Shown here: piece by piece, positions 1 through 41,106 of the stretch
Layout: the number at the start of each line of letters is the position of its first letter
Position numbering within the stretch: position 1 is the first letter of the stretch
IMG/VR virus record: IMGVR_UViG_2609460346_000006
Coordinates: 1 to 42,345 of that record
From: a virus
Taxonomy: Duplodnaviria; Heunggongvirae; Uroviricota; Caudoviricetes
DNA length: 42,345 bases
Direction: 5' to 3' (one strand)
Position numbers and translations under genes: made by a program
The notes under the pieces: model-generated
Databases searched by the model: none
What the model saw: only the letters and a program-made list of their open reading frames with translations
Told to the model about the DNA's origin: nothing

Positions 1-1143
1 CTATGCTGTTTTGATATCTACGATAATCCAGTCTTTACCACGATCATCATTGTATCGGTCGGTCATTTTTCTGGATTTATGACCTAACAACTTTTGCGTA
101 TCCAGACCCTGTTCCCGATATAACCGTTCTGACAGAGATCGCTGCTCATGAAATGTGGGCGCAGTTCCTGGCTCCCATTTTATGCCACATTTTTCCCTGG
201 CCTTTTTAAAAGCCGTTGTAAGAGTATTTGCAGAAACCTGGTCTCCTCTGTTTGCTTGAGAGGTAGTGTGACGGTAATGGACCAGATATTTACTAACAAC
301 AGCATCCCTGCACTGAGATATAACTTCACGAAGGGTAATATTCAGAGCATCGCATTTCAGGCTAAGCGGAATAGCAAGTTTTGAACCGGTTTTTTCCTGA
401 GTAATGTGCAACATGTCGTCCCATATATCAGAGAATTTCAAATTGCAGATATCGCCTAAACGTTGTCCAGTAACAAGAGCAAGTAGCATGCCGCATTTTA
501 AATAGGGCTGCCGTCTGCTTACGCTTTCAAATATTGCCTGCCATTCGGGCAGTGATAATCTTTGGCGGTTTACTCGATTTCGCGGTTGTTTTGTTGCCTG
601 CGCTGGGTTAAATCCTGGCGGAACATGTCCTGCGTGTTGTGCTTCTTTGAAGACGTCGATCAACACCATTCTCACGACTTGCGCCATCCTGTTATGACCT
701 TCAGCCTTTACAGCATCAATTATTTCGGCAATATCAAGTGCGGTAATATCCTTGAGGTGTTGCATTCCACAATGCTCACGGAAAAGACGAATGGGTTTAC
801 CTTTTTGCCGATAGGAGTTGGGTTTTAGTTCATTATGTTGCAGCCTGTCCTCCTGGATAGAAATATATTTATCAAGCCATTCTGTCACCGTAATGTCTGA
901 ACGCCTGCCTTTCATTCTTTCTAGACGCTCATTGACGCTTAATATTTGTCGGGTACGTTGTTCAGCAATAATGGTATTTGCTTCAGTAGCAACTTGTTTT
1001 GCTTCATTCTCATCAGTTCCTAAGCTATGAAAACGACCGGATAGTGGATGTTTGTATTGCCAATATACCTTTCCGGTTCGCTTATCTAATTTGCAATATA
1101 AATTGGGTATAGAGATTTTGTGAGATCGGGGTCTAGCAGCCAT
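1..1143 (-). CDS. int: Tyrosine integrase, lambda Int family; window begins at its stop codon
   Basis: 380-aa ORF; C-terminal region aligns with lambda Int from memory (…TGQRLGDIC…, …HEQRSLSERLY…, …LLGHKSRKMTDRYNDDRGKDW…); start overlaps upstream xis as in lambda; lambda-type att core found at the other prophage end. Confidence 0.9.
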   Translation of the reverse strand: MAARPRSHKISIPNLYCKLDKRTGKVYWQYKHPLSGRFHSLGTDENEAKQVATEANTIIAEQRTRQILSVNERLERMKGRRSDITVTEWLDKYISIQEDRLQHNELKPNSYRQKGKPIRLFREHCGMQHLKDITALDIAEIIDAVKAEGHNRMAQVVRMVLIDVFKEAQHAGHVPPGFNPAQATKQPRNRVNRQRLSLPEWQAIFESVSRRQPYLKCGMLLALVTGQRLGDICNLKFSDIWDDMLHITQEKTGSKLAIPLSLKCDALNITLREVISQCRDAVVSKYLVHYRHTTSQANRGDQVSANTLTTAFKKAREKCGIKWEPGTAPTFHEQRSLSERLYREQGLDTQKLLGHKSRKMTDRYNDDRGKDWIIVDIKTA

Positions 1144-1369
1144 CAGCGATTATCCGTTGGAGTTTTGGGTTTGCGTTTATTGGGAGTTGCGGTTCTGCAA
1201 GCGTTCCTACAAAACGGGAATTTCGGTCAATCATCCAGTAGCGACCAACTTTTATAGCGGGTGGGGCCATCATTTTCCCTTGCGCGTATTTTTTCAGAAC
1301 TCGCTCACTTGGTGCTAAGTCCCCAAATTCTTCTTTAGCCCAGTCCTGTAAAGTGATTAGTCGAGACAT
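1133..1369 (-). CDS. xis: Excisionase (Xis-like)
   Basis: 78 aa starting at internal ATG (1367-1369) preceded by GAGGAGG RBS; small basic protein overlapping the int start as in lambda; the 5' part of the listed ORF is treated as an extension. Confidence 0.7.
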   Translation of the reverse strand: MSRLITLQDWAKEEFGDLAPSERVLKKYAQGKMMAPPAIKVGRYWMIDRNSRFVGTLAEPQLPINANPKLQRIIADGC

Positions 1370-1507
1370 TTGTCCTCCTCTTACTGCTGAGGGAGTTTGT
1401 GACCGATATATCTGACATGATATTAAGCTCATGGCAGGTACATCTCTTGACTGGTCATAGAGATAAATTTAATGCTGAGAAATGCAGTATTGAATTTATC
1501 AATTTTT

Positions 1508-1794: not shown

Positions 1795-2013
1795 TTACAA
1801 TCCCCATTGTTTGTTCTTAAGTTCGATCTCCTCCTGGCAACTTGCACAAGTCCGACAACCCTGAACGGCCAGGCGTCTTCGCTCATCTATGGGATCGCCA
1901 CACTCACAACAATGAGTGGCAGATATAGCCTGGTGGTTCAGGCGGCGCATTTTTATTGCTGTGTTGCGCTGTAATTCTTCAATTTCTGATGCTGAATCAA
2001 TGATGTCTGCCAT
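1795..2013 (-). CDS. TraR/DksA-family C4 zinc-finger protein
   Basis: 72 aa with CxxC…17 aa…CxxC (…HCCECGDPID…CRTCASCQ…), typical of phage TraR/DksA-like proteins. Confidence 0.7.
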   Translation of the reverse strand: MADIIDSASEIEELQRNTAIKMRRLNHQAISATHCCECGDPIDERRRLAVQGCRTCASCQEEIELKNKQWGL

Positions 2014-2111: not shown

Positions 2112-2327
2112 TCACCGTTCCTTAAAAACGCCGTTTAACATGCCGATCGCTAGGCTTAAATGAGTCGGTGTGAATCCCATCAGCGTTACCGTTTCGCGGT
2201 GCTTCTTCAGTACGCTACGGCAAATGTCATCGACGTTTTTATCCGGAAACTGCTGTCTGGCTTTTTTGATTTCACAATTAGCCTGACGGGCAATGCTGCG
2301 AAGGGCGTTATTATGTTCTATTGTCAT
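2112..2327 (-). CDS. Hypothetical small phage protein
   Basis: 71 aa from internal ATG (2325-2327) immediately downstream of the preceding gene stop; the N-terminal extension in the ORF track overlaps the upstream gene and is not used. Confidence 0.45.
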   Translation of the reverse strand: MTIEHNNALRSIARQANCEIKKARQQFPDKNVDDICRSVLKKHRETVTLMGFTPTHLSLAIGMLNGVFKER

Positions 2328-2334
2328 ATTGGCC

Positions 2335-3087
2335 TCACACTTCGAATGCCAACTGAGGGGTAAAGACGTCCCGTTCAGCGTTGTAATTAAGTGAACTGGC
2401 ACTGTTGAATGATTCAATGCGTTCCACAAGAACTTGCGTACGGGTTTCTTTACTTGCGGGAGCATATGGCGAACCTACCCAGGATTTGTCGATGCCTATA
2501 TTTCTTGCGACGTTCGTGCTGTCTGCAGACGAAAGCGGTACATGAGTAAAAATGTCTTTATTTAACATCCGTAACCCATGAATCTTGGTGATTGGGTAGC
2601 CGTACTGATCTACAACATGACGTATAAGATCGCGTAGTTTAGCCCGACACGCTCTCGGTCGTTTTGCATCGTATTCCCCCATCGAGCCGATGCAGACGCG
2701 GGGAAACTCATGGCACAGACGAATAAATCGCTCATCTGGTTCGTTCATGTGCCACACCGGAGCACCAATAAATTTACCGTGAGGCCATGCCGCAATCAGG
2801 GCGTCATTCTCTTCACTGGTTCCGCCGATAACATCCGGGATAACCGCGAATGAGAAACGAGGGTGATTACCCCAGCGTTCAACAAATCTGTAATATTCAT
2901 TCCAGTCTACGGCCTTGTTTTTTGTCCAGAATGTGAATGCACCATTATCAAGAGCAAATGATTGGGTGACTTCGGAAGCCAGATCAATCTGAGCTGGATT
3001 AGCAAAACTGATGAATGCGTGTCTGCCTTTCCAGGCTTTCAACGCACAGGTATCGGGAGTTATTGGACCACCGTGAAAATGAATCAT
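2335..3087 (-). CDS. Conserved 250-aa ea-region protein; possible tRNA-guanine transglycosylase (TGT/DpdA)-superfamily enzyme (hypothesis)
   Basis: ORF coupled by ATGA overlap to upstream small ORF; motifs …LDNGAF… and …ADSTNVARN… resemble TGT substrate-Asp (DSGG[FY]) and catalytic-Asp/…RNAR… regions by eye; no search run. Confidence 0.6.
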   Translation of the reverse strand: MIHFHGGPITPDTCALKAWKGRHAFISFANPAQIDLASEVTQSFALDNGAFTFWTKNKAVDWNEYYRFVERWGNHPRFSFAVIPDVIGGTSEENDALIAAWPHGKFIGAPVWHMNEPDERFIRLCHEFPRVCIGSMGEYDAKRPRACRAKLRDLIRHVVDQYGYPITKIHGLRMLNKDIFTHVPLSSADSTNVARNIGIDKSWVGSPYAPASKETRTQVLVERIESFNSASSLNYNAERDVFTPQLAFEV

Positions 3088-3242
3088 ACACTCTCCCGTT
3101 TATTATTTATCTCCTCAGCCAGTCGCTGGGCTTTCAGCGGATTTCGGATAACAGAAGGCCCGGGAAATACCCAGCCTCGCTTTGTAACGGAGTAGACGAA
3201 AGTGATCGCACCTACCCGGATATTATCGTGAGGATGCTTCAT
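3084..3242 (-). CDS. Small hypothetical protein translationally coupled between exo and the 250-aa gene
   Basis: 52-aa ORF ([11 protein letters not shown]…) whose ATG overlaps the exo stop (ATGA) and whose stop overlaps the next ATG (ATGA); below the ORF-track size cutoff. Confidence 0.4.
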
Positions 3243-3919
3243 CGCCATTGCTCCCCAAATACAAAACCAATTTCAGCCAGTGCCTCGTCCATTTTTTCGA
3301 TGAACTCCGGCACCATCTCGTCAAAACTCGCCATGTACTTTTCATCCCGCTCAACCACGACATAATGCAGTCCTTCACGCTTCATACGCGGGTCATAGTT
3401 GGCAAAGTACCAGGCATCTTTTCGCGTCACCCACATGCTGTACTGCACCTGGGCCATGTAAGCTGACTTTATGGCCTCGAAACCACCGAGCCGGAACTTC
3501 ATGAAATCCCGGGAGGTAAACGGGCATTTCAGTTCAAGGCCGTTGCCGTCACTGCATAAACCATCTGGAGAGCAGGCGGTACGCATACTTTCGTCGCGAT
3601 AGATGATCGGTGATTCAGTAACATTCACGCCGGAAGTGAACTCAAACAGGGCTCTGGCGTCGTTCTCGTACTGTTTTCCCCAGGCCAGCGCTTTAGCGTT
3701 AACTTCCGGAGCCACACCGGTGCAAACCTCAGCAAGCAGGGTGTGGAAGTAGGACATTTTCATGTCAGGCCACTTTTTTCCGGAGCGGGGTTTTGCTATT
3801 ACGTTATGAACTTCTGAAGCTGTGATGACGCCGAGCCGTAATTTGTGCCACGCATCATCCCCCTGTTCGACAGCTCTCACGTCGATCCCGGTACGCTGCA
3901 GGATAATGTCCGGTGTCAT
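3239..3919 (-). CDS. exo: Lambda exonuclease (Red alpha)
   Basis: 226-aa translation is near-identical to lambda Exo as recalled ([50 protein letters not shown]…GEQWR). Confidence 0.97.
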
Positions 3920-4701
3920 GCTGCCACCTTCTGCTCTGCGGCTTTCTGTTTCAGGAATCCAAGAGCTTTTACTGCTTCGGCCTGTGTCAGTTCTGACGAT
4001 GCGCGAATGTCGCGGCGAAATATCTGGGAACAGAGCGGCAATAAGTCGTCATCCCATGTTTTATCCAGGGCGATCAGCAGAGTGTTAATCTCCTGCATGC
4101 TTTCATCGTTAACCGGAGTGATGTCGCGTTCCGGCTGACGTTCTGCAGTGTATGCGGTATTTTCGACAATGCGCTCGGCTTCATCCTTGTCATAGATACC
4201 AGCAAATCCGAAGGCCAGACGGGCACACTGAATCATAGCTTTATGCCGTAACATTCGTTTGGGATGCGACTGCCACGGTCCCGTGATTTCTCTGCCTTCG
4301 CGGGTTTTGAATGGTTCGCGGCGGCATTCATCCATCCACTCGGTAACGCAGATCGGATGATTACGGTCCTTGCGGTAAATCCGGCATGTACATGATTCAT
4401 TGTCCTGCTCAAAGTCCATGCCATCAAACTGCTGGTTTTCATTAATGATGCGGGACCAGCCATCAACGCCCACCACAGGAACGATGCCGTTCTGCTTATC
4501 AGGGAAGGCGTAAATTTCTTTCGTCCACGGATTAAGGCCGTACTGGTTGGCGACGATCAGCAATGCGATGAACTGCGCATCGCTGGCATCACCTTTAAAT
4601 GCCGTCTGACGAAGAGTGGTGATCAGTTCCTGTGGGTCGACAGAATCCATGCCGACACGTTCAGCCAGCTTCCCGGCTAGCGTTGCGAGTGCTGTACTCA
4701 T
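3916..4701 (-). CDS. bet: Lambda Bet (Red beta) single-strand annealing protein
   Basis: 261-aa translation matches lambda Bet as recalled ([66 protein letters not shown]…). Confidence 0.97.
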
Positions 4702-5369: not shown

Positions 5370-5562
5370 AACTAAGCCGCCTCGTTGAAACGACTGAGGT
5401 ATGAAGTGTTGAGTTGATTTCAGCTGGTCACACCGACGTTCACGCGTCCGCTTCACCCCTCGCACTTCCCGAAGCCTGCTGAAATTCAAGCTGCGGACCT
5501 AAGCGGTCATCGCAACGGTGAATCAGGTGGTTGCCGTATCGTTGTGTTGTTGCGATGAATTT

Positions 5563-5660
5563 ATTTAAAACTATAGTTGTTTTGTTGTCAACAACAAAAG
5601 TTGTTTTATTGGTTGTTTTAGATGTAACTGGTTGTATTTAGGATGGGTTTATTTTGTGAC
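5563..5660 (-). promoter_or_regulatory. Putative oL/pL: leftward early promoter with repressor operators
   Basis: On minus strand TTGACA (5586-5591), 17-bp spacer, TTAAAT (5563-5568); inverted repeat TTGTTG-TCAA-CAACAA overlaps the -35; repeated GGTTGT half-sites (5610-5640) match the half-sites in OR. Confidence 0.55.
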
Positions 5661-5732
5661 TTGCATCGCATAGCGATAACTGAAGGGAGATTGTGGTGGT
5701 TTTTTGAACGGTATACGTGATGAGGGGAGGGG

Positions 5733-5762
5733 ATAAAAGAAAACCCGGCACGGTGGCCGGGT
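5733..5762 (-). terminator. Rho-independent terminator after the rex-position gene
   Basis: 7-bp GC stem ACCCGGC/GCCGGGT (5743-5762) followed on the minus strand by a T-run (5733-5742). Confidence 0.7.
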
Positions 5763-5766
5763 ATCT

Positions 5767-6720
5767 TTATTCGAATGGAAGATCTATTTGCCTTTGAGGA
5801 TTCAACTGTTTTTTTACATGCTCAATTTCGAATATGGTTTTTATGGCATCTCCGATCATATATTGAGTTACTTTTAAATCTACAAGTAACATATCACCTT
5901 TAGAAAAATTTAAGGTGTTGTTATCAATATCGCTGATGAATTTCTGGTCTTTTATTTCAGCCAAAAAGCTACTGGCACCATCAGAAAACCGCCACCGGCT
6001 TCCTTCATTGAAGGAAATATTTTTAATTTGAAGGGCTTTCTCTACTGTGTACTCTGAAATTATTGATTCTGCTGGTAGATTGACTTTGAAATAATGTGCT
6101 TCTTGCTTGTTGATCGTCATGAATGTCAAACCATCATCGACAGTAGAGGCAAAGCTGTCAATGCCTTCCTGCTCTAATGGCTTACTTATAACTTCTTGTA
6201 ATGAAGAGCGAAGTTTAATATTTTTATAAAGTTCAATAACGTTACTGTCGTAGATCTCGCTTTCGTCATCAACAAAGACTTCGATGTTGCTATCAGGCAA
6301 ATTGTGTAATTTTTTTATTTTCCTTGGACCTATCCATTTTATCAGTTGAATTAGGCCTTTGCATATTTTTTCTTTAGAACCAGGACAGAGTCCAATAAAA
6401 GCAATCAAATTCGCAGCGGCTGTTGCTGAATCGCCGGATAAAAAATCAACAGCCTGTTTGAACCAAGATGTAGATGAGGCAACCAGATCTATTCCAAATG
6501 AGCCAGCTTTAAATGATGCATTGACTTTTACAGAAACAACAGTCTTGTTTCCGTAGAGAGTTTTACCGGCTTCCTCTAATGCATCTGATAGTGATAGAAG
6601 GGCAGGAGCAAGGTCTCGCACGTTCATTTCATGCGTTTCCAGTGCCGGACCGTCGTATACTATCCTGAACTTCATATCATTGGTTTCCGAATTGTTGCCC
6701 GCATCCATTATGGCATTCAC
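5767..6720 (-). CDS. Unknown 317-aa protein in the rexAB slot; candidate lysogen-expressed accessory/defence gene
   Basis: Long AT-rich ORF directly downstream of and co-oriented with cI, own terminator, followed by oL/pL; no catalytic motif, TM segment or P-loop seen; start is GTG at 6720 or ATG at 6708 (AGGTGA 8 nt upstream). Confidence 0.7.
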   Translation of the reverse strand: MNAIMDAGNNSETNDMKFRIVYDGPALETHEMNVRDLAPALLSLSDALEEAGKTLYGNKTVVSVKVNASFKAGSFGIDLVASSTSWFKQAVDFLSGDSATAAANLIAFIGLCPGSKEKICKGLIQLIKWIGPRKIKKLHNLPDSNIEVFVDDESEIYDSNVIELYKNIKLRSSLQEVISKPLEQEGIDSFASTVDDGLTFMTINKQEAHYFKVNLPAESIISEYTVEKALQIKNISFNEGSRWRFSDGASSFLAEIKDQKFISDIDNNTLNFSKGDMLLVDLKVTQYMIGDAIKTIFEIEHVKKQLNPQRQIDLPFE

Positions 6721-6781
6721 CTGATCACATATACAGTTAATTTACGATATTGTCTTAAATCTTAAAACTTCTATTGTATGG

Positions 6782-7471
6782 CTACCCATGCTTCCTATAC
6801 GTCTGCGGCATGCTCCCAATAACCTTACCGAAGATGAACACCCGGTTCATCTCGTCTTTCTCGATCGGGTCCCAAGGTGAGTAGCTCTTGTTATCAGAGA
6901 TAACCAGCAGCTTATCCTTCATCATTTGCAGACGCTTTACATGGGCTGTGTCGTCGTACAGAAACGCATAGATACCATCACCGTCGAAAGATTTAACCGT
7001 GATATCAACGAACAGCAGATCACCTGGTTCGATCGTTCCTGACATGCTGTCACCGCGTACGTTAATGATACGGATATTTTCCGCCTTCCTGCCATCGAAC
7101 ATGTGACGAGCATCGTCAAACGAATACTCAACCGAACGTAGAACTTCTACAAACTCACGGTTGATGACTCCCGGCCCGGCACTCACTTCGATATCAAGAA
7201 CGTCAATCTTAAAGTATTTGGAATGGCTGACAGTTGTTTGTATTGGTTGCACTGTACTGTCTGACATATTTCCAACGCCAGAAGATAACCATTCTGCGCG
7301 CACACCCAAAGCGTTCGCGATCTCCACGATTTTAGTTGTTTGGTTAGCTTTCCCTGTTTCGATTTTCTGAATAGCTGCTTGGCTAACCCCGACCAAATCC
7401 CCAAGCGCCTTTTGTGTAAGGCCTCGCGCTAATCTGGCTTCTTTAAGTCTTTCTGAGAGTGTTGTTTTCAT
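6782..7471 (-). CDS. CI-like prophage repressor (N-terminal HTH, C-terminal S24/LexA-like peptidase)
   Basis: 229 aa from ATG 7469-7471; HTH (…LTQKALGDLVGVSQAAIQKIETGK…), Ala-Gly cleavage site (…VSAGPG…), Ser/Lys dyad (…GDSMSG…, …HVKRL…); divergent from cro across an operator region. Confidence 0.9.
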   Translation of the reverse strand: MKTTLSERLKEARLARGLTQKALGDLVGVSQAAIQKIETGKANQTTKIVEIANALGVRAEWLSSGVGNMSDSTVQPIQTTVSHSKYFKIDVLDIEVSAGPGVINREFVEVLRSVEYSFDDARHMFDGRKAENIRIINVRGDSMSGTIEPGDLLFVDITVKSFDGDGIYAFLYDDTAHVKRLQMMKDKLLVISDNKSYSPWDPIEKDEMNRVFIFGKVIGSMPQTYRKHG

Positions 7472-7575
7472 AGTCCAAATGTACAACCAAGGTTTTATTT
7501 CATCAAACGAAAATGGTTGTTGACTAAAAACAACCATGGTTTTAATCTTGATTCAAATTAACCACGGAGGTTGTT
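7472..7575. promoter_or_regulatory. OR region: divergent pRM/pR with three TGGTTGT-type operator sites
   Basis: Sites at ~7482-7492, 7514-7524, 7529-7540; candidate pR -35 TTGACT (7520-7525) with -10 near 7541-7548; GGAGG RBS before cro ATG. Confidence 0.6.
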
Positions 7576-11083: not shown

Positions 11084-12610
11084 ATGAAAAAAGCCATAGC
11101 ATATATGCGATTTTCATCACCAGGTCAGATGTCTGGTGATTCATTAAACCGCCAGAGAAGGCTTATTACTGAATGGCTAAAGGTAAATAGTGATTATTAC
11201 CTTGATACCGTAACGTATGAAGATTTGGGGTTAAGCGCATTCAATGGAAAGCATGCACAATCAGGAGCTTTTTCGGAATTTTTAGATGCTATAGAACATG
11301 GTTATATATTGCCAGGGACTACATTGTTAGTTGAAAGTCTGGACAGACTTTCAAGAGAAAAAGTCGGTGAAGCGATTGAGCGTCTGAAATTGATTTTGAA
11401 TCACGGTATTGATGTTATAACTCTTTGCGATAATACAGTCTATAATATTGACTCATTGAATGAGCCATATTCATTAATAAAAGCCATACTTATAGCACAA
11501 AGGGCAAATGAAGAAAGCGAGATAAAGTCAAGTCGGGTTAAATTATCATGGAAGAAAAAACGGCAGGATGCACTGGAGTCAGGCACGATTATGACGGCTT
11601 CTTGTCCGAGATGGCTCTCATTGGATGACAAAAGAACGGCTTTTGTTCCAGACCCCGACAGGGTGAAAACTATTGAGCTAATTTTTAAACTCAGGATGGA
11701 AAGGCGCTCATTGAATGCAATAGCCAAGTATTTAAATGATCATGCTGTAAAGAATTTCTCAGGAAAAGAAAGTGCATGGGGACCTTCTGTAATTGAAAAA
11801 TTATTAGCGAATAAAGCTCTGATAGGTATATGCGTACCTTCATATCGTGCAAGAGGGAAAGGGATAAGTGAAATCGCTGGCTATTATCCCAGAGTCATAT
11901 CAGATGATTTGTTTTACGCTGTACAGGAAATTCGGTTGGCACCTTTTGGTATTAGCAATAGTAGCAAGAATCCTATGCTAATAAATCTACTTCGAACAGT
12001 TATGAAGTGTGAGGCTTGTGGTAATACCATGATTGTTCATGCGGTATCTGGAAGTTTGCATGGCTATTATGTTTGTCCGATGAGAAGATTACATCGATGT
12101 GACAGACCATCAATAAAAAGAGATTTGGTTGATTATAATATCATTAATGAATTGCTTTTTAATTGTAGCAAAATTCAACCAGTTGAAAACAAGAAAGATG
12201 CTAATGAAACTTTAGAGTTAAAAATTATTGAGCTTCAGATGAAAATTAATAATTTAATCGTTGCATTGTCTGTCGCGCCTGAAGTTACCGCTATAGCAGA
12301 GAAAATAAGACTATTAGATAAGGAATTACGAAGGGCTTCGGTATCATTAAAAACTTTGAAGAGTAAAGGGGTGAGTTCACTTGGTGATTTTCATGCTATT
12401 GATTTAACCAGTAAAAATGGGCGAGAGCTATGTCGTACACTTGCCTATAAAATATTCGAAAAAATTATAATTAATACAGATAATAAAACCTGTGATATCT
12501 ATTTTATGAATGGCATTGTTTTTAAACACTATCCTTTAATGAAAGTAATATCCGCCCAGCAGGCGATAAGTACTCTTAAATATATGGTTGATGGTGAGAT
12601 TTATTTTTGA
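11084..12610 (+). CDS. ybcK: Large serine recombinase (YbcK-like)
   Basis: 508 aa; N-terminal resolvase-type catalytic domain (…AIAYMRFSSPGQ… with catalytic Ser, …LLVESLDRLSR…), Cys-rich zinc-ribbon region and coiled-coil C-terminus; AT-rich. Confidence 0.8.
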   Translation: MKKAIAYMRFSSPGQMSGDSLNRQRRLITEWLKVNSDYYLDTVTYEDLGLSAFNGKHAQSGAFSEFLDAIEHGYILPGTTLLVESLDRLSREKVGEAIERLKLILNHGIDVITLCDNTVYNIDSLNEPYSLIKAILIAQRANEESEIKSSRVKLSWKKKRQDALESGTIMTASCPRWLSLDDKRTAFVPDPDRVKTIELIFKLRMERRSLNAIAKYLNDHAVKNFSGKESAWGPSVIEKLLANKALIGICVPSYRARGKGISEIAGYYPRVISDDLFYAVQEIRLAPFGISNSSKNPMLINLLRTVMKCEACGNTMIVHAVSGSLHGYYVCPMRRLHRCDRPSIKRDLVDYNIINELLFNCSKIQPVENKKDANETLELKIIELQMKINNLIVALSVAPEVTAIAEKIRLLDKELRRASVSLKTLKSKGVSSLGDFHAIDLTSKNGRELCRTLAYKIFEKIIINTDNKTCDIYFMNGIVFKHYPLMKVISAQQAISTLKYMVDGEIYF

Positions 12611-12934: not shown

Positions 12935-12961
12935 AGCCCGCATAAGTGCGGGCTGCTTTTT
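12935..12961 (+). terminator. Rho-independent terminator (possibly bidirectional) between ybcK-like and the esterase gene
   Basis: Hairpin AGCCCGCA-TAAG-TGCGGGCT followed by GCTTTTT; abuts the esterase stop codon. Confidence 0.6.
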
Positions 12962-14003
12962 ACAGGTCAGCGTTTGTTTTTTGTTGTTGGGTAGCGGTTT
13001 TTATGGGGGTTCCCAGGTTTTTAGTAAACCACTCAACAACTCTGTTTATAATAATTGGCTGATACCATGTATTATCGCCATGCTCAGCCCCTTCTACCAG
13101 AACGTACTCAGCGTTATCGCCGTTCTTCTTCAACATCCTGAATAGTTTGGCGCTTTGCTCAGGTGAAACCAGAGTGTCTTTGCTACCATGCATAATAAGA
13201 AATGGGGGTTTTACTCCTTTCATATGTCCGATTGGACTGGCGTTTAGCGCTTTTTCTTTTGACGCTGTTATGGGGGCTCCCGCAAAACTTCTGAATGCAG
13301 GGCCATTGATCATTAAGGCTTCGGTTACGGCAGGAGATCGATGAACCTCCTGCACTGATTCAGGGAACCCCTCGCCAATATTCAACAAGTCAGAAATCCC
13401 ATAAAGTGTGGCAACTGCCTGAACATCTGCTGATTGCTGAAGAAAGTCACCTTTATTAAAGGTTTTGTCACCATTTGTAGTTCCCATCATCTGGGCAAGC
13501 CATCCACCGGCAGAGTCACCCAGAACTCCGATTCTTTGAGGATCAATCCCATAATCGCTGGCATGTTCTCTCAAGTAACGTATTGCAGCTTTCCCATCCT
13601 CAACTGGTGCTGGAAATGTATCAGGAATTGTTCTGTATTCTACAGCGGCCACAACAAAACCAGCTTCAGCCAGAGCCATTCTCATTTCAATAAATTTGTC
13701 ATGTTCAGAAGACATGAATCCGCCGCCGGGATAATAAATAATGGCTGGTCTTAAATCATTTGTTCGCGGGACAAGAACTGACATGTGAAGCTGTCTGACA
13801 GAACGAGTTCCTTTTATCTGGGAATAAACAACATCACCAATGAGATCGACCTGGTTTCTGGTGGGTGAAACACTAATGATATCTGCACCCGGGGTGTAAC
13901 CAGGAAGATTAGTCTGGACAGGTGTTGCACAACTCCCGACCGACATGGCCATTGACATACCATACAATAGTGTTGCAGATGATAATATCTTGTTAATTTT
14001 CAT
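12960..14003 (-). CDS. Secreted alpha/beta-hydrolase esterase/lipase, probable lipoprotein
   Basis: 347 aa; signal peptide with lipobox-like …SVGSC…; HGGG-like …YYPGGGF… and nucleophile elbow …GDSAGG… of the alpha/beta hydrolase fold. Confidence 0.8.
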   Translation of the reverse strand: MKINKILSSATLLYGMSMAMSVGSCATPVQTNLPGYTPGADIISVSPTRNQVDLIGDVVYSQIKGTRSVRQLHMSVLVPRTNDLRPAIIYYPGGGFMSSEHDKFIEMRMALAEAGFVVAAVEYRTIPDTFPAPVEDGKAAIRYLREHASDYGIDPQRIGVLGDSAGGWLAQMMGTTNGDKTFNKGDFLQQSADVQAVATLYGISDLLNIGEGFPESVQEVHRSPAVTEALMINGPAFRSFAGAPITASKEKALNASPIGHMKGVKPPFLIMHGSKDTLVSPEQSAKLFRMLKKNGDNAEYVLVEGAEHGDNTWYQPIIINRVVEWFTKNLGTPIKTATQQQKTNADL

Positions 14004-16512: not shown

Positions 16513-17595
16513 TTAGAACTGATAAACCAGACCTACAGCGACGATGTCGTCGGTATCAATACCAGCTGTTTTGGTAAACTTACTATCGTCAATTAAGTTG
16601 ATTTTGTAATCAACAAAAGTGGACATGTTTTTATTAAAGTAGTAAGTAGCACCGACATCGACATACTTGACTAAGTCTCGGTCACCATGAACACCAAGGT
16701 CTTTACCTTTTGACTGAAGGTAAGCAACAGATGGTCGCAGACCGAAGTCAAACTGATATTGTGCTACTGCTTCAAAGTTTTGTGCTTTGTTTGCAATATG
16801 GTTATTACCAAAAACGGTCATATTCTGAGTTTCAGAATATGTGGTAGCCAGATAGATATTGTTCGCATCATATTTCAGGCCTGCAGCCCATACTTCCGCA
16901 TTTTTGCCGGAGGCATTGAATTTGCTCTTACCATAGGCGACCTGACCGTCAGTGCGATCTGATTTAGCATAGGTTGCACCCACGCCGAATCCTTCATACT
17001 CATAAGTAGTGGAGAAACCGAAACCATCACCATTGGCTTCAGTTACGTCAGTGCGGTCATTTTTACCCTGATACTGAGCAGCAAAGTTCAGGCCATCGAC
17101 CAGACCAAAGAAGTCGTTGTTACGATAAGTTGCAACACCAGTAGTGCGACCAGTCATGAACACATCTGTTTGGGTCCAGGTATCACCACCGAATTCTGGC
17201 AGGACGTCAGTCCACGCACCGATGTCGTATGCTACACCGTAGTTACGGCCGTAATCGATTGAGCCGTAATCACCAAATTTCAGGCCTGCAAATGCAAGAC
17301 GGGTTTTGTCTTTGGAAGAACCTTGAGATTCAGCACGGTTGCCTTTGAATTCATATTCCCACTGACCGAAACCAGTCAGTTGATCGTTGATTTGGGTTTC
17401 ACCTTTGAAGCCAAGACGGGCATAAGTAGTATCACCATCATCTGCATCATTAGAGGAAAAGTAGTGCTTGGCATTAACTTTCCCGTATAGATCCAGCTTG
17501 TTACTGTCTTTATTATAAATTTCAGCTGCCTGAGCAGACATCGCCATCAGTACTGATGCAGCTACAGCAGAAATTGCCACTGTTAATTTTTTCAT
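16513..17595 (-). CDS. nmpC: OmpC/NmpC-family general porin (phage moron)
   Basis: 360 aa; signal peptide ending …SAQA; porin-like sequence ending in the C-terminal …VGLVYQF; antisense between Q and lysis genes as for DLP12 nmpC. Confidence 0.9.
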
Positions 17596-38085: not shown

Positions 38086-40158
38086 ATGACAGACATTACA
38101 GCCAATGTTGTAGTGAGTATGCCTTCGCAACTCTTCACTATGGCGCGTTCTTTTAAAGCCGTAGCCAATGGCAAAATTTATATCGGTAAAATTGACACTG
38201 ACCCGGTAAATCCTGAAAACCAGATTCAGGTTTATGTGGAGAACGAAGATGGTTCTCACGTTCCTGTTGCACAGCCAATCATCATTAACGCTGCTGGTTA
38301 CCCGGTATATAACGGACAGATTGCCAAGTTCGTAACTGTGCAAGGCCATTCTATGGCTGTTTATGATGCATACGGTGTGCAGCAGTTCTATTTTCCTAAT
38401 GTGCTGAAGTATGACCCGGATCAGTTGCGACAGCAATTATTAAACCCTGACACTGGCCTAGGAGATGCGCTTGTTATTGTTAAACAGCCATATGCTGGTT
38501 CTGTACCTATTACTCAACATCAGCACAACACCTATCTCCTTACCCCTTACCACTTCGCAGCAAAGGGAGATGGTATTACAGATGACACTCTTGCCCTAAA
38601 CCGCTGGTCCAATTGCGGAGCTAAGGTACTCTATTGGCCAGCAGGAAAATATCTGGTGAGCCCTACAAATGGTGTTTCTCTGGATATGGATAACTACCAT
38701 ACAGGGGATTCCGCACTAACGGCGTGCGTAACCGTTCCCTATGGCGTGAAAATTTATACGGCTGGGACAGAAACCCAGTTATGCGTGAAGGATGCTGACT
38801 CAGCATCGACCGTAGGTCTGGCCGTTAGCTACCCGGAGTCAAGTTATTCCCAGGGAGAAACCGACATCGGAAAATTCATGATTCGCCTGGAAAACGGAAA
38901 TGGTCGGTACGGTATTCTTACTCCACTCAGGGGGGAAATGTTCACTGCGCACCGGGCGAAGTTCAAATTAGGAGCGCATTTCGGTCCTCAACAGGGGCGT
39001 GATGACCTGACGGTGCTACAGTATTCGTGGGTAAATGGCATGCTGATTGGCGACGCTTTTAGCGGCTCAGTGCATGTCACTGGATACGGCAGCTATAACG
39101 TACAGCAGGTTGAAGGTACGCAATTCCAGTGCGTGGCCGTTAAGATGAAGTCCGTTCGAGGTAACGTAGGTGTAGACATCAGATTCAACACAAACAACTG
39201 GTGGAAGTTTGTCGAACTGAGTGACGGCGTTGAAGGGTTTGTTGTCAAGGACAGCGAAGGGCTTGGGGCATTTGTTGGAATCGACCTAACCAACCCAGCC
39301 AGCGAGCCAGGTGGATTTATCGATAACGTACACGTCAACGTTAAGCAAAACGGAGTACGAGCCAGAAACAGGCCATCCCTGCAAATCGGAAACATTGAAG
39401 TCTATAAAAGTGATGGATTTGCCACTGACCTTGTTTACGATGCGGTGCTTCTGGTTGACTGCCAGGAAGTGACTATCAACTCTATTCACGCAATCGTCGG
39501 CAACTCAATCACAAATGCTCAGTCAGTAGTTAACTCGACAAACAGCACATTCCGCCTGAACTCATACTTTGCGCAAAACATCAGGTTCGTCGATTTTGTG
39601 GTTAATAGCCCTGACTGCTATGTCGGAGAGGGGACAATTAACCAGGTCGAGGCAGTTCACTCACTTTCTGGATCACAAAGCAACGACTTCCACGGTAGTG
39701 ATGTTCTGGTTAGATCCTACAGAAACAACGTTCGCCCACTTTACGCAGTGATGGATTCCGCTTTCAACAGGGCAAGGGCGAGGTTTCCACAAAATACAAG
39801 CCTCCAGGTGAGAACCTTTCTCGACTACACTGTGGCAGCAGCTGGGACTTTAACAATAGAACCAAGGCTTGACCCATCCAGGTACTACATCATCATGAGT
39901 GCTGGTACAGGTGCCTTCACCTATTCAATTGAGCTGGATAAAGTGTCTGCCGTAGTTGGTGATATTGTTTACATAAAGATAGCCGGGTCATCATCTGCTA
40001 ACCCAACAGTTTTGGTTAAAAATGGTATTGGTGGGACAACGCTCAGCACATTCAATAATATCGGTCCGATTCGTTTGAATTGTGCTTACAGATTTAATGA
40101 GTCAGGTAACTGGGTGGCCTACTACATTACCCAAAGCGTTGAAACCACTTATGGCTAA
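38086..40158 (+). CDS. Tailspike protein: P22 gp9-type head-binding domain with a different receptor-binding domain
   Basis: 690 aa; first ~110 aa closely match the P22 tailspike N-terminus ([13 protein letters not shown]…[26 protein letters not shown]…VLKYDPDQ); remainder does not match P22. Confidence 0.9.
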
Positions 40159-40629: not shown

Positions 40630-41106
40630 TTAACTAAACATCGCAGTAATCGAGGCACTCGCCAGAGAGTGAAAATGAACGTTAAACCCGACCATCGCGC
40701 CGCTGGCACCTTCATCGACATCAATACGTTCTACATCCAGCGCGTGAACGGTAAAAATGTAGCGATGGGTTTCGCCTTTCGGCGGCGCTGCGCCATCGTA
40801 CCCGGTTTTACCAAAGTCGGTACGCGTCTGCAAAACGCCGTCTGGCATAGCTACCAGACCAGAGCCAAACCCTTGCGGTAATACGCGGGTATCAGCGGGT
40901 AAATTAACAACTACCCAGTGCCACCAGCCGGAGCCGGTTGGCGCATCCGGGTCATAGCAGGTGACAACAAAACTTTTCGTTCCCACAGGAACATCATCCC
41001 ACGCCAGATGCGGTGAAATATTATCGCCATCGTAACCCATGCCGTTAAAGACATGACGATGCGGCAGCTTATCGCCATCGCGCAGATCGTTACTGATGAG
41101 TTTCAT
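40630..41106 (-). CDS. ybhB: Host YbhB (PEBP/RKIP-family protein)
   Basis: 158 aa matching E. coli YbhB as recalled; adjacent to attB-lambda as in E. coli. Confidence 0.85.
   Translation of the reverse strand: MKLISNDLRDGDKLPHRHVFNGMGYDGDNISPHLAWDDVPVGTKSFVVTCYDPDAPTGSGWWHWVVVNLPADTRVLPQGFGSGLVAMPDGVLQTRTDFGKTGYDGAAPPKGETHRYIFTVHALDVERIDVDEGASGAMVGFNVHFHSLASASITAMFS

Follow-up and report, generated by a model that had tools for sequence, protein, structure and literature searches.

A stand-alone DpdA homologue encoded by a lambdoid prophage is identical to a catalogued protein of Shigella phage SfI

The window analysed here, a 42,345-nucleotide stretch of viral DNA, is a lambdoid prophage whose early-left accessory region carries an open reading frame for a 250-amino-acid homologue of the stand-alone phage DNA-guanine transglycosylases (DpdA). 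This gene is real and conserved, its product is homologous to an experimentally validated phage DpdA and has the barrel of tRNA-guanine transglycosylases (TGTs), and a complete catalytic set has been kept as judged from alignments. We consider it probable that the protein functions as a stand-alone (‘singleton’) phage DpdA, a minimal enzyme of the TGT fold that exchanges a base in DNA.

The finding is correct but was already known, since an identical protein has been catalogued as a stand-alone DpdA since 2019 and its clade was discussed again in 2021. The 250 residues are matched at 100% identity by gp34 from Shigella phage SfI (YP_009147480) and at 99.6% by a protein from Escherichia phage PhiR5_1. 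The SfI entry YP_009147480 appears in Supplementary Data 1 of Hutinet et al. (2019) as a DpdA without accompanying synthesis genes, along with the DpdA-only phages HK106, BTP1, SPN3UB, SEN1, SE131, PEAT2 and 7-11, all of which are tblastn matches of the window protein at 36-68% identity. Those authors proposed that DpdA-only phages ‘could rely on preQ0 synthesized by the host’, and observed that the gammaproteobacterial stand-alone DpdAs cluster separately and may have diverged. The same group was later described as cluster DpdA/TGT_1, together with proteobacterial homologues (Simoliuniene et al., 2021; PMC8306585). For DpdA in lambdoid, P22-like and other temperate phages, our search of the literature yielded nothing beyond the 2019 table and the paper on phage MED16, and the homologue in BTP1 goes unmentioned in the transcriptome paper on that phage.

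The allele is carried at 99% identity or more by 100 of 5,426 complete E. coli genomes (~2%), and its divergent forms extend through Enterobacterales, Vibrio and Aeromonas. In E. coli genomes the PGAP name of the product is ‘hypothetical protein’. The RefSeq label for SfI gp34 is ‘queuine tRNA-ribosyltransferase’, which wrongly implies a tRNA substrate.

Genomic setting of the dpdA-like gene

The features of the locus are listed below from right to left. Leftward past dpdA, the order is a small phrog_303 gene, a TraR/DksA zinc-finger gene, a DUF4222 gene, xis and int.

6782..7537, minus strand: cI-like repressor gene, followed leftward by a 317-aa gene, kil, gam, bet and exo
3916..4701, minus strand: bet
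3239..3919, minus strand: exo
3084..3248, minus strand: DUF1317 open reading frame, 54 aa from the first ATG (Pfam PF07026, E = 1.5e-32)
3084..3097, minus strand: translational coupling signal, read directly from the sequence
2335..3087, minus strand: dpdA-like gene, a 250-aa ATG open reading frame encoding the stand-alone phage DNA-guanine transglycosylase homologue
2112..2327, minus strand: downstream phrog_303 gene, 71 aa, function unknown (PHROG match, phage 4A7 annotation)
1795..2013: TraR/DksA-like zinc-finger gene (PF01258, E = 1.2e-8)

An earlier note, made by eye from the sequence, had described a 250-aa protein coupled to a 52-aa open reading frame, with a TraR-like zinc finger nearby and no preQ0 synthesis genes in the window, and all of these observations hold. 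The small partner is the DUF1317 gene, whose product has 52 residues when counted from the start at 3242. Its TGA and the dpdA ATG overlap as ATGA (3084..3087), and a GGGAG Shine-Dalgarno sequence (3093..3097) lies inside the DUF1317 open reading frame, 5 nucleotides 5′ of the dpdA ATG. When FolE, QueD, QueE, QueC and YhhQ/VUT proteins from phages CAjan, Rinkes and Pam5 were used as tblastn queries, none was found in the window (best E = 0.19). The same type of search revealed no preQ0 or YhhQ genes within 10 kb of dpdA in 80 related IMG/VR loci, defined as those encoding relatives at 64% identity or more.

Although the translational coupling is real, the upstream neighbour of dpdA is highly variable, and therefore the coupling does not indicate a two-protein system. 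DUF1317 occupies the upstream position in 24 of the 80 related loci, and at least 25 other protein families are found there otherwise; a 4-nucleotide overlap with the upstream gene, whichever family it belongs to, is common across these loci. The gene upstream of dpdA is Ead/Ea22-like in BTP1 and a tiny hypothetical gene in HK106. In phage 4A7 dpdA is absent, yet DUF1317 adjoins exo. We considered DUF1317 as a functional partner and rejected it, since it is the neighbour in 24 of 80 loci only and stays by exo in phages that lack dpdA. DUF1317 is a piece of conserved backbone beside exo rather than a dedicated partner of dpdA.

On the other side of dpdA, a 117-aa open reading frame (2112..2465, minus strand) overlaps the final 131 nucleotides of the gene, and phage SfI is annotated likewise. 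This frame probably represents a 71-aa gene that starts at 2327, because its PHROG match spans residues 45-117 only and phage 4A7 annotates the short, 216-nucleotide version.

In most lambdoid phages that share the backbone of this prophage, the slot taken here by dpdA is filled by a small DUF1382 gene, and dpdA is therefore a mobile cassette. An identical dpdA gene is present in this prophage, which has a P22-type tailspike, and in the myovirus SfI. The cassette therefore moves between lambdoid backbones and sits on unrelated virion modules.

Homology to a validated phage DpdA

The 250-aa protein matches PHROG 887, ‘queuine tRNA-ribosyltransferase’, with E = 4e-99. Approximately 6,200 homologues were found in a collection of 5.8 billion proteins, most of them 250 residues long and from Enterobacterales, Aeromonas and Vibrio, and 894 additional representatives of clusters at 50% identity reached E ≤ 0.001. 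An alignment of 123 members, with identities down to 32%, was compared by hhalign with the DpdA protein of phage CAjan (98.5%, E = 1.6e-15) and with an alignment of the CAjan family (98.7%, E = 3e-16, 154 columns). CAjan DpdA is a validated enzyme, as evident by the loss of dPreQ0 from CAjan DNA when its dpdA gene is deleted (PMC6884629). For MED16 DpdA, an HHpred match to the TGT of T. maritima at 99.2% is reported (PMC8306585).

The near-invariant positions of the 123-member alignment are H5, G6, D47, G49, A50, P84, D85, H113, E116, G134, H170, L172, R173, D189 and S190, and of these, D47, D85, H113, E116, G134, H170, D189 and S190 line up with positions at which the CAjan family is invariant. 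The earlier note had called the protein a TGT/DpdA-like enzyme because its LDNGAF and ADSTNVARN segments resemble the aspartate regions of TGTs. Both the call and the resemblance are borne out: D47 and D189 are conserved in 120 and 118 of the 123 members, and the alignment with the CAjan family lies far beyond chance.

The protein thus combines homology to an experimentally validated phage DpdA (hhalign, PHROG 887) with the TGT-like (β/α)8 barrel expected of such enzymes, and it appears from the alignments to retain the three invariant active-site aspartates and the conserved DpdA histidine. Linkage to genes for 7-deazaguanine synthesis or salvage was found neither in the window nor in the 80 loci. 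This absence is a defining trait of the published DpdA-only group and does not exclude the protein from it.

Several searches gave no match. Pfam and NCBIfam scans of the protein returned nothing at E ≤ 1, including for TGT (PF01702) and the tgt models, and the same scans found no TGT match among the 123 family members. E. coli Tgt, compared as a single sequence with the 123-member alignment, gave no hhalign signal (probability 0.4%). Searches with phmmer and hmmsearch between PDB sequences and the protein or either alignment revealed nothing relevant, and Foldseek comparison of the structure model with the PDB returned only generic TIM barrels at E ≥ 6e-3, a level at which other barrels are not separated. 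No PADLOC model matched the protein. The CXCX2CX22H zinc site is absent, as the only cysteines are at positions 14, 125, 132 and 147 and form no CXCXXC motif. Both the zinc motif and a Pfam match are missing from CAjan DpdA as well, and therefore these features mark the cellular enzymes, not phage DpdA.

Predicted active site

The segments and codons that are expected to form the active site are listed below.

2935..2952, minus strand: LDNGAF, residues 46-51, end of strand β3; pairs with the invariant LDSGAF of the CAjan family
2947..2949, minus strand: codon of D47, kept in 120 of 123 members; aligns with CAjan-family D63
2833..2835, minus strand: codon of D85, kept in 121 of 123; aligns with the invariant D105 of the CAjan family
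2749..2751, minus strand: codon of H113 in PVWH, end of strand β5, kept in 120 of 123; aligns with the invariant CAjan-family H132
2683..2688, minus strand: codons of G134-S135 in the IGSxGEY loop after strand β6; aligns with the CAjan-family G153-G154 loop
2578..2580, minus strand: codon of H170 in KIHGLRML, strand β7, kept in 121 of 123; aligns with the invariant CAjan-family H187
2500..2526, minus strand: ADSTNVARN, residues 188-196, strand β8 and after; pairs with the invariant CDSSSW of the CAjan family
2521..2523, minus strand: codon of D189; D189 and S190, each kept in 118 of 123, align with CAjan-family D206-S207

Residues D47, D85, H113, G134, H170 and D189 (each kept in 118 to 121 of 123 members) are all located at the C-terminal end of a barrel strand. 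The roles proposed for them are predictions drawn from strand position and spacing relative to published active sites. D189 would be the nucleophile that forms a covalent enzyme-deoxyribose intermediate, by correspondence with Asp256 of Salmonella DpdA, replacement of which by Ala inactivates the enzyme (PMC10164549), and with D248 of Cap10. H170 is a likely hydrogen-bond partner that positions this nucleophile; it precedes D189 by 19 residues, and the corresponding spacing in Cap10, from H226 to D248, is 22.

D47 is predicted to act as a general acid/base and to contact the base, as judged from Asp95 of Salmonella DpdA (PMC10164549); its counterpart in Cap10 is D73-S74. The earlier note had named the aspartate of LDNGAF as the substrate Asp. 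This assignment is partly supported in that the counterpart of D47 contacts the base, but the role expected for D47 is that of general acid/base, and the dedicated base-recognition aspartate is predicted to be D85, which had been overlooked. The prediction for D85 follows from Asp130 of Salmonella DpdA and D122 of Cap10. F51, which is Phe or Tyr in 116 of the 123 members, may stack on the base in the manner of Phe99 of Salmonella DpdA (PMC10164549). H113 is the putative conserved DpdA histidine and a candidate base contact, which, judging from its strand and spacing, would correspond to His181 of Salmonella DpdA. Finally, G134 and S135 (kept in 119 and 108 of 123 members) may shape the pocket for the 7-substituent of the incoming base, as suggested by the Gly-rich β6 loop of TGT and DpdA enzymes.

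Relation to described DpdA systems

The window protein belongs with the stand-alone phage DpdAs, which are the ‘third group’ of Hutinet et al. (2019) and the cluster DpdA/TGT_1, and which include SfI gp34, HK106 gp29, BTP1 gp23, SPN3UB, SEN1, MED16 gp38 and 7-11 gp032. It has the same sequence as SfI gp34 and 36-68% identity to the remaining members, which share its size class (230-266 aa), its conserved residues and the lack of phage preQ0 genes. As here, the temperate members have dpdA among the early accessory genes that separate the recombination genes from xis/int. Nothing of substance distinguishes the present case from this group, the difference being the P22-type tailspike here versus the myovirus virion of SfI.

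DpdA1 of CAjan and 9g (Queuovirinae), the validated preQ0 insertase, has a homologous barrel core from β3 to β8, in which the D, D, H, E, G, H and D-S positions align. However, CAjan DpdA is only ~20% identical to the window protein, and 39 N-terminal and 50 C-terminal residues are left unaligned. The CAjan enzyme has 306 residues, is encoded in a folE-queD-queC-queE-yhhQ cluster, and acts in a phage in which ~32% of G is modified. The β6 loop reads G-S-x-G-E in the window protein versus G-G-M-V-G in CAjan.

Bacterial DpdA of the Dpd system (Salmonella Montevideo, PDB 7UI4) has ~400 residues with four insertions, a zinc site and a 70-residue helical bundle, requires the DpdB ATPase, and is encoded in a dpdA-K cluster, whereas none of these features is seen here. 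Insertions Ins1, Ins2, Ins3 and Ins8 are lacking from the window protein, whose 250 residues, against ~400, leave no room for Ins8, and its gene is surrounded by lambdoid early genes rather than by dpdB-K. Cap10 of type IV CBASS (PDB 9NTN) shows 10% identity and, encoded within a CBASS operon, cooperates with QueC-like Cap9 to act on a CD-NTase at its N-terminus. A Cap9-CD-NTase operon was not found: two QueC queries gave no tblastn match in the window, and the neighbours of dpdA are variable small phage genes.

A proposed role in sparse DNA modification

Two relatives from the same cluster have been measured, 7-11 and MED16 (proteins 36% and 39% identical to the window protein), and they provide indirect evidence for the window gene. 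DNA of Salmonella phage 7-11 contains 50 dADG per 10^6 nucleotides, or ~0.02% of G, and no dPreQ0 (LC-MS/MS; PMC6884629). DNA of Pantoea phage MED16 contains 354 dADG (~0.13% of G) and 3 dPreQ0 per 10^6 nucleotides (LC-MS/MS; PMC8306585). The base of the tested relatives is dADG, not dPreQ0, and no nitrile hydratase is evident. When expressed alone in E. coli, 9g DpdA inserts dPreQ0 made from host precursor into plasmid DNA at 0.03-0.3% of G (Hutinet et al., 2019). Mycobacteriophage Orion retains a stand-alone DpdA even though preQ0 is made by neither the phage nor its host, and Orion DNA carries no modification (PMC6884629); some stand-alone DpdAs may therefore do something else.

The mechanism that we favor begins with transcription of the early-left genes. 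The dpdA gene shares its strand with the upstream genes kil, gam, bet and exo and with xis and int on its downstream side, and from this orientation and position we infer that the protein is made early in lytic growth or after induction. By homology, guanine would be flipped from double-stranded DNA into the barrel pocket, where D189, positioned by H170, would displace the base to form a covalent enzyme-deoxyribose intermediate. D47 would serve as general acid/base in this exchange, D85 and H113 would read the base, and a free 7-deazaguanine base would resolve the intermediate. Given that the prophage has no synthesis genes, this base would have to come from the queuosine pathway of the host, as preQ0 or as ADG, its immediate relative. 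A dependence on host preQ0, which the earlier note had also suggested, is the same hypothesis as that published for DpdA-only phages (PMC6884629), and it fits with the absent synthesis genes. Extrapolating from the two measured relatives, the outcome should be sparse modification, below 1% of G and mainly dADG, with no bulk replacement of G.

Such a low level bears on the anti-restriction purpose that had been proposed for the modification, which finds no support among the relatives. In MED16 DNA, all enzymes tested on G-containing sites cut, and only Dam-sensitive enzymes were blocked (PMC8306585). A protective value against restriction is unproven, probably weak, and doubtful on the MED16 data. 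We thus consider it quite improbable that the enzyme performs efficient anti-restriction hypermodification of a large fraction of G at a target motif, as is known from CAjan (~32% of G) and iggy (~16%). The protein is a homologue of CAjan DpdA that keeps every aligned invariant residue, and deazaguanine does shield the DNA of CAjan, 9g and iggy from restriction enzymes. However, the high levels reported so far are from phages that encode their own preQ0 pathway or most of it, and the window holds neither a synthesis nor a transporter gene. On host preQ0 alone, the 9g enzyme remains at 0.03-0.3% of G, and the stand-alone relatives reach 0.02-0.13%. Still harder to sustain is the idea of a phage-borne tRNA-guanine transglycosylase that alters host tRNA (queuosine/preQ1, position 34) to tune lytic translation. 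This idea derives from the database label and from the fold in common with TGT, but the label stems from remote homology rather than from a test, and E. coli already has Tgt. Neither Pfam and NCBIfam models nor Tgt itself place the protein in the Tgt/ArcTGT family, the zinc subdomain is absent, and with 250 residues, against 375 in E. coli Tgt, there is little room for the large insertions with which TGT holds its anticodon stem-loop.

An unlikely, though less remote, alternative is that the stand-alone clade has diverged and uses its TGT-type pocket on another target or base, e.g. for a protein-linked deazaguanine as in Cap10, as a DNA glycosylase, or to interfere with a deazaguanine-dependent defence of the host. 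Cap10 is an example of this fold turned to a protein substrate, and the separate clustering and possible divergence of stand-alone DpdAs (Hutinet et al., 2019), the Orion gene that is kept without a preQ0 source, and modification in 7-11 and MED16 that is scarce enough for a side activity to account for it all speak for such a change. Nevertheless, the window contains no QueC-like Cap9 or CD-NTase and the neighbours are highly variable, the profile similarity is to a DNA-modifying DpdA, deazaguanine is present in the DNA of two relatives, and the genes associated with this family are DNA methylases, QueD and YhhQ-type genes.

We also entertain the speculative notion that the stand-alone clade, instead of being a weaker version of the CAjan-type enzyme, is specialised to put ADG in place of preQ0, or a small number of marks at specific sites, into the DNA of temperate phages when they are induced. 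Such marks would have a purpose other than blocking classical restriction, perhaps marking for packaging or expression, or evading another type of defence. We leave room for this less probable scenario because both relatives carry dADG and not dPreQ0, because of the G-S-x-G-E loop, and because these genes are kept without host preQ0. If the enzyme is active, a temperate coliphage could mark its own DNA with rare 7-deazaguanine obtained from host metabolites only. The identification itself adds nothing new, and the remaining interest concerns the purpose of sparse dADG marks and the route to ADG, both of which are already published questions. An inducible lambdoid prophage in the genetically tractable E. 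coli would be a convenient system for the question of the sparse marks.

Distant relatives near other DNA and deazaguanine genes

Distant members of the family provide independent links to deazaguanine and DNA metabolism. Phage Pam5, whose protein is 42% identical, encodes a Vut_1/YhhQ-type transporter two genes downstream of DpdA, and DpdA of the mycobacteriophage Rinkes, a weak direct tblastn match (E = 5e-4), is located inside a full preQ0 cluster. DNA methyltransferase genes are near DpdA in Epa33 and MED16. In one metagenomic contig (L090; JGI 3300041077 Ga0452210_009018), a continuous 335-aa open reading frame (2840..3847) combines an entire QueD/PTPS domain with a DpdA-like domain that is almost full length and shares 41% identity with the window protein; such a QueD-DpdA architecture is not mentioned in the passages of the DpdA literature at hand.

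In a P2/186-like prophage (L091; Logan SRR27214370_135), a truncated Dam domain is in frame with a DpdA-like domain that lacks the first two strands (6001..7266), and the gene is immediately upstream of the gpA replication gene. Recombination may have created this frame as a chimera, or it may encode a true DNA modifier with two domains. The Dam-DpdA ‘fusion’ P0231 was rejected as evidence for a DNA substrate, since each of its two parts is incomplete (the Dam model is covered over positions 1-201 of 253, and the DpdA portion begins at residue 39) and it is probably a chimera. It shows only the adjacency of Dam and DpdA genes in a P2-like prophage. A further ‘fusion’ from Phage_GPD (P0267) was set aside as a likely miscall.

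Other genes of the prophage

Directly left of the cI-like repressor gene, the 317-aa gene (5767..6720, minus strand) matches the candidate defence family PDC-S42 of PADLOC (E = 3.4e-86) and phrog_3243, a family of unknown function, and has no Pfam domain. This location is that of rexAB in lambda, and the gene is probably a defence gene expressed in lysogeny. It is followed by a strong terminator-like hairpin at 5743..5762. Between the kil region and this gene (5490..5766), no open reading frame for an N-like antiterminator is evident.

The prophage has a tyrosine integrase and xis at 1..1432, and also a 508-aa large serine recombinase with Resolvase, Recombinase and zinc-ribbon domains (11084..12610, plus strand), which is located downstream of the O/P replication genes and might serve as an additional module for integration/excision or inversion, or belong to an inserted element. 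A 347-aa esterase (12960..14003, minus strand; BD-FAE / alpha-beta hydrolase, phrog_3341) is encoded on the strand opposite to its neighbours and looks like a moron-type accessory gene. Further along, a 360-aa Gram-negative porin (16513..17595, minus strand; PF00267, E = 1.9e-151, phrog_410) resembles the OmpC/Lc-type porins of some lambdoid phages. The P22-type tailspike is encoded at 38086..40158 on the plus strand (Head_binding domain, E = 8.8e-67), and is followed by a PEBP-family gene at 40630..41106 on the minus strand.
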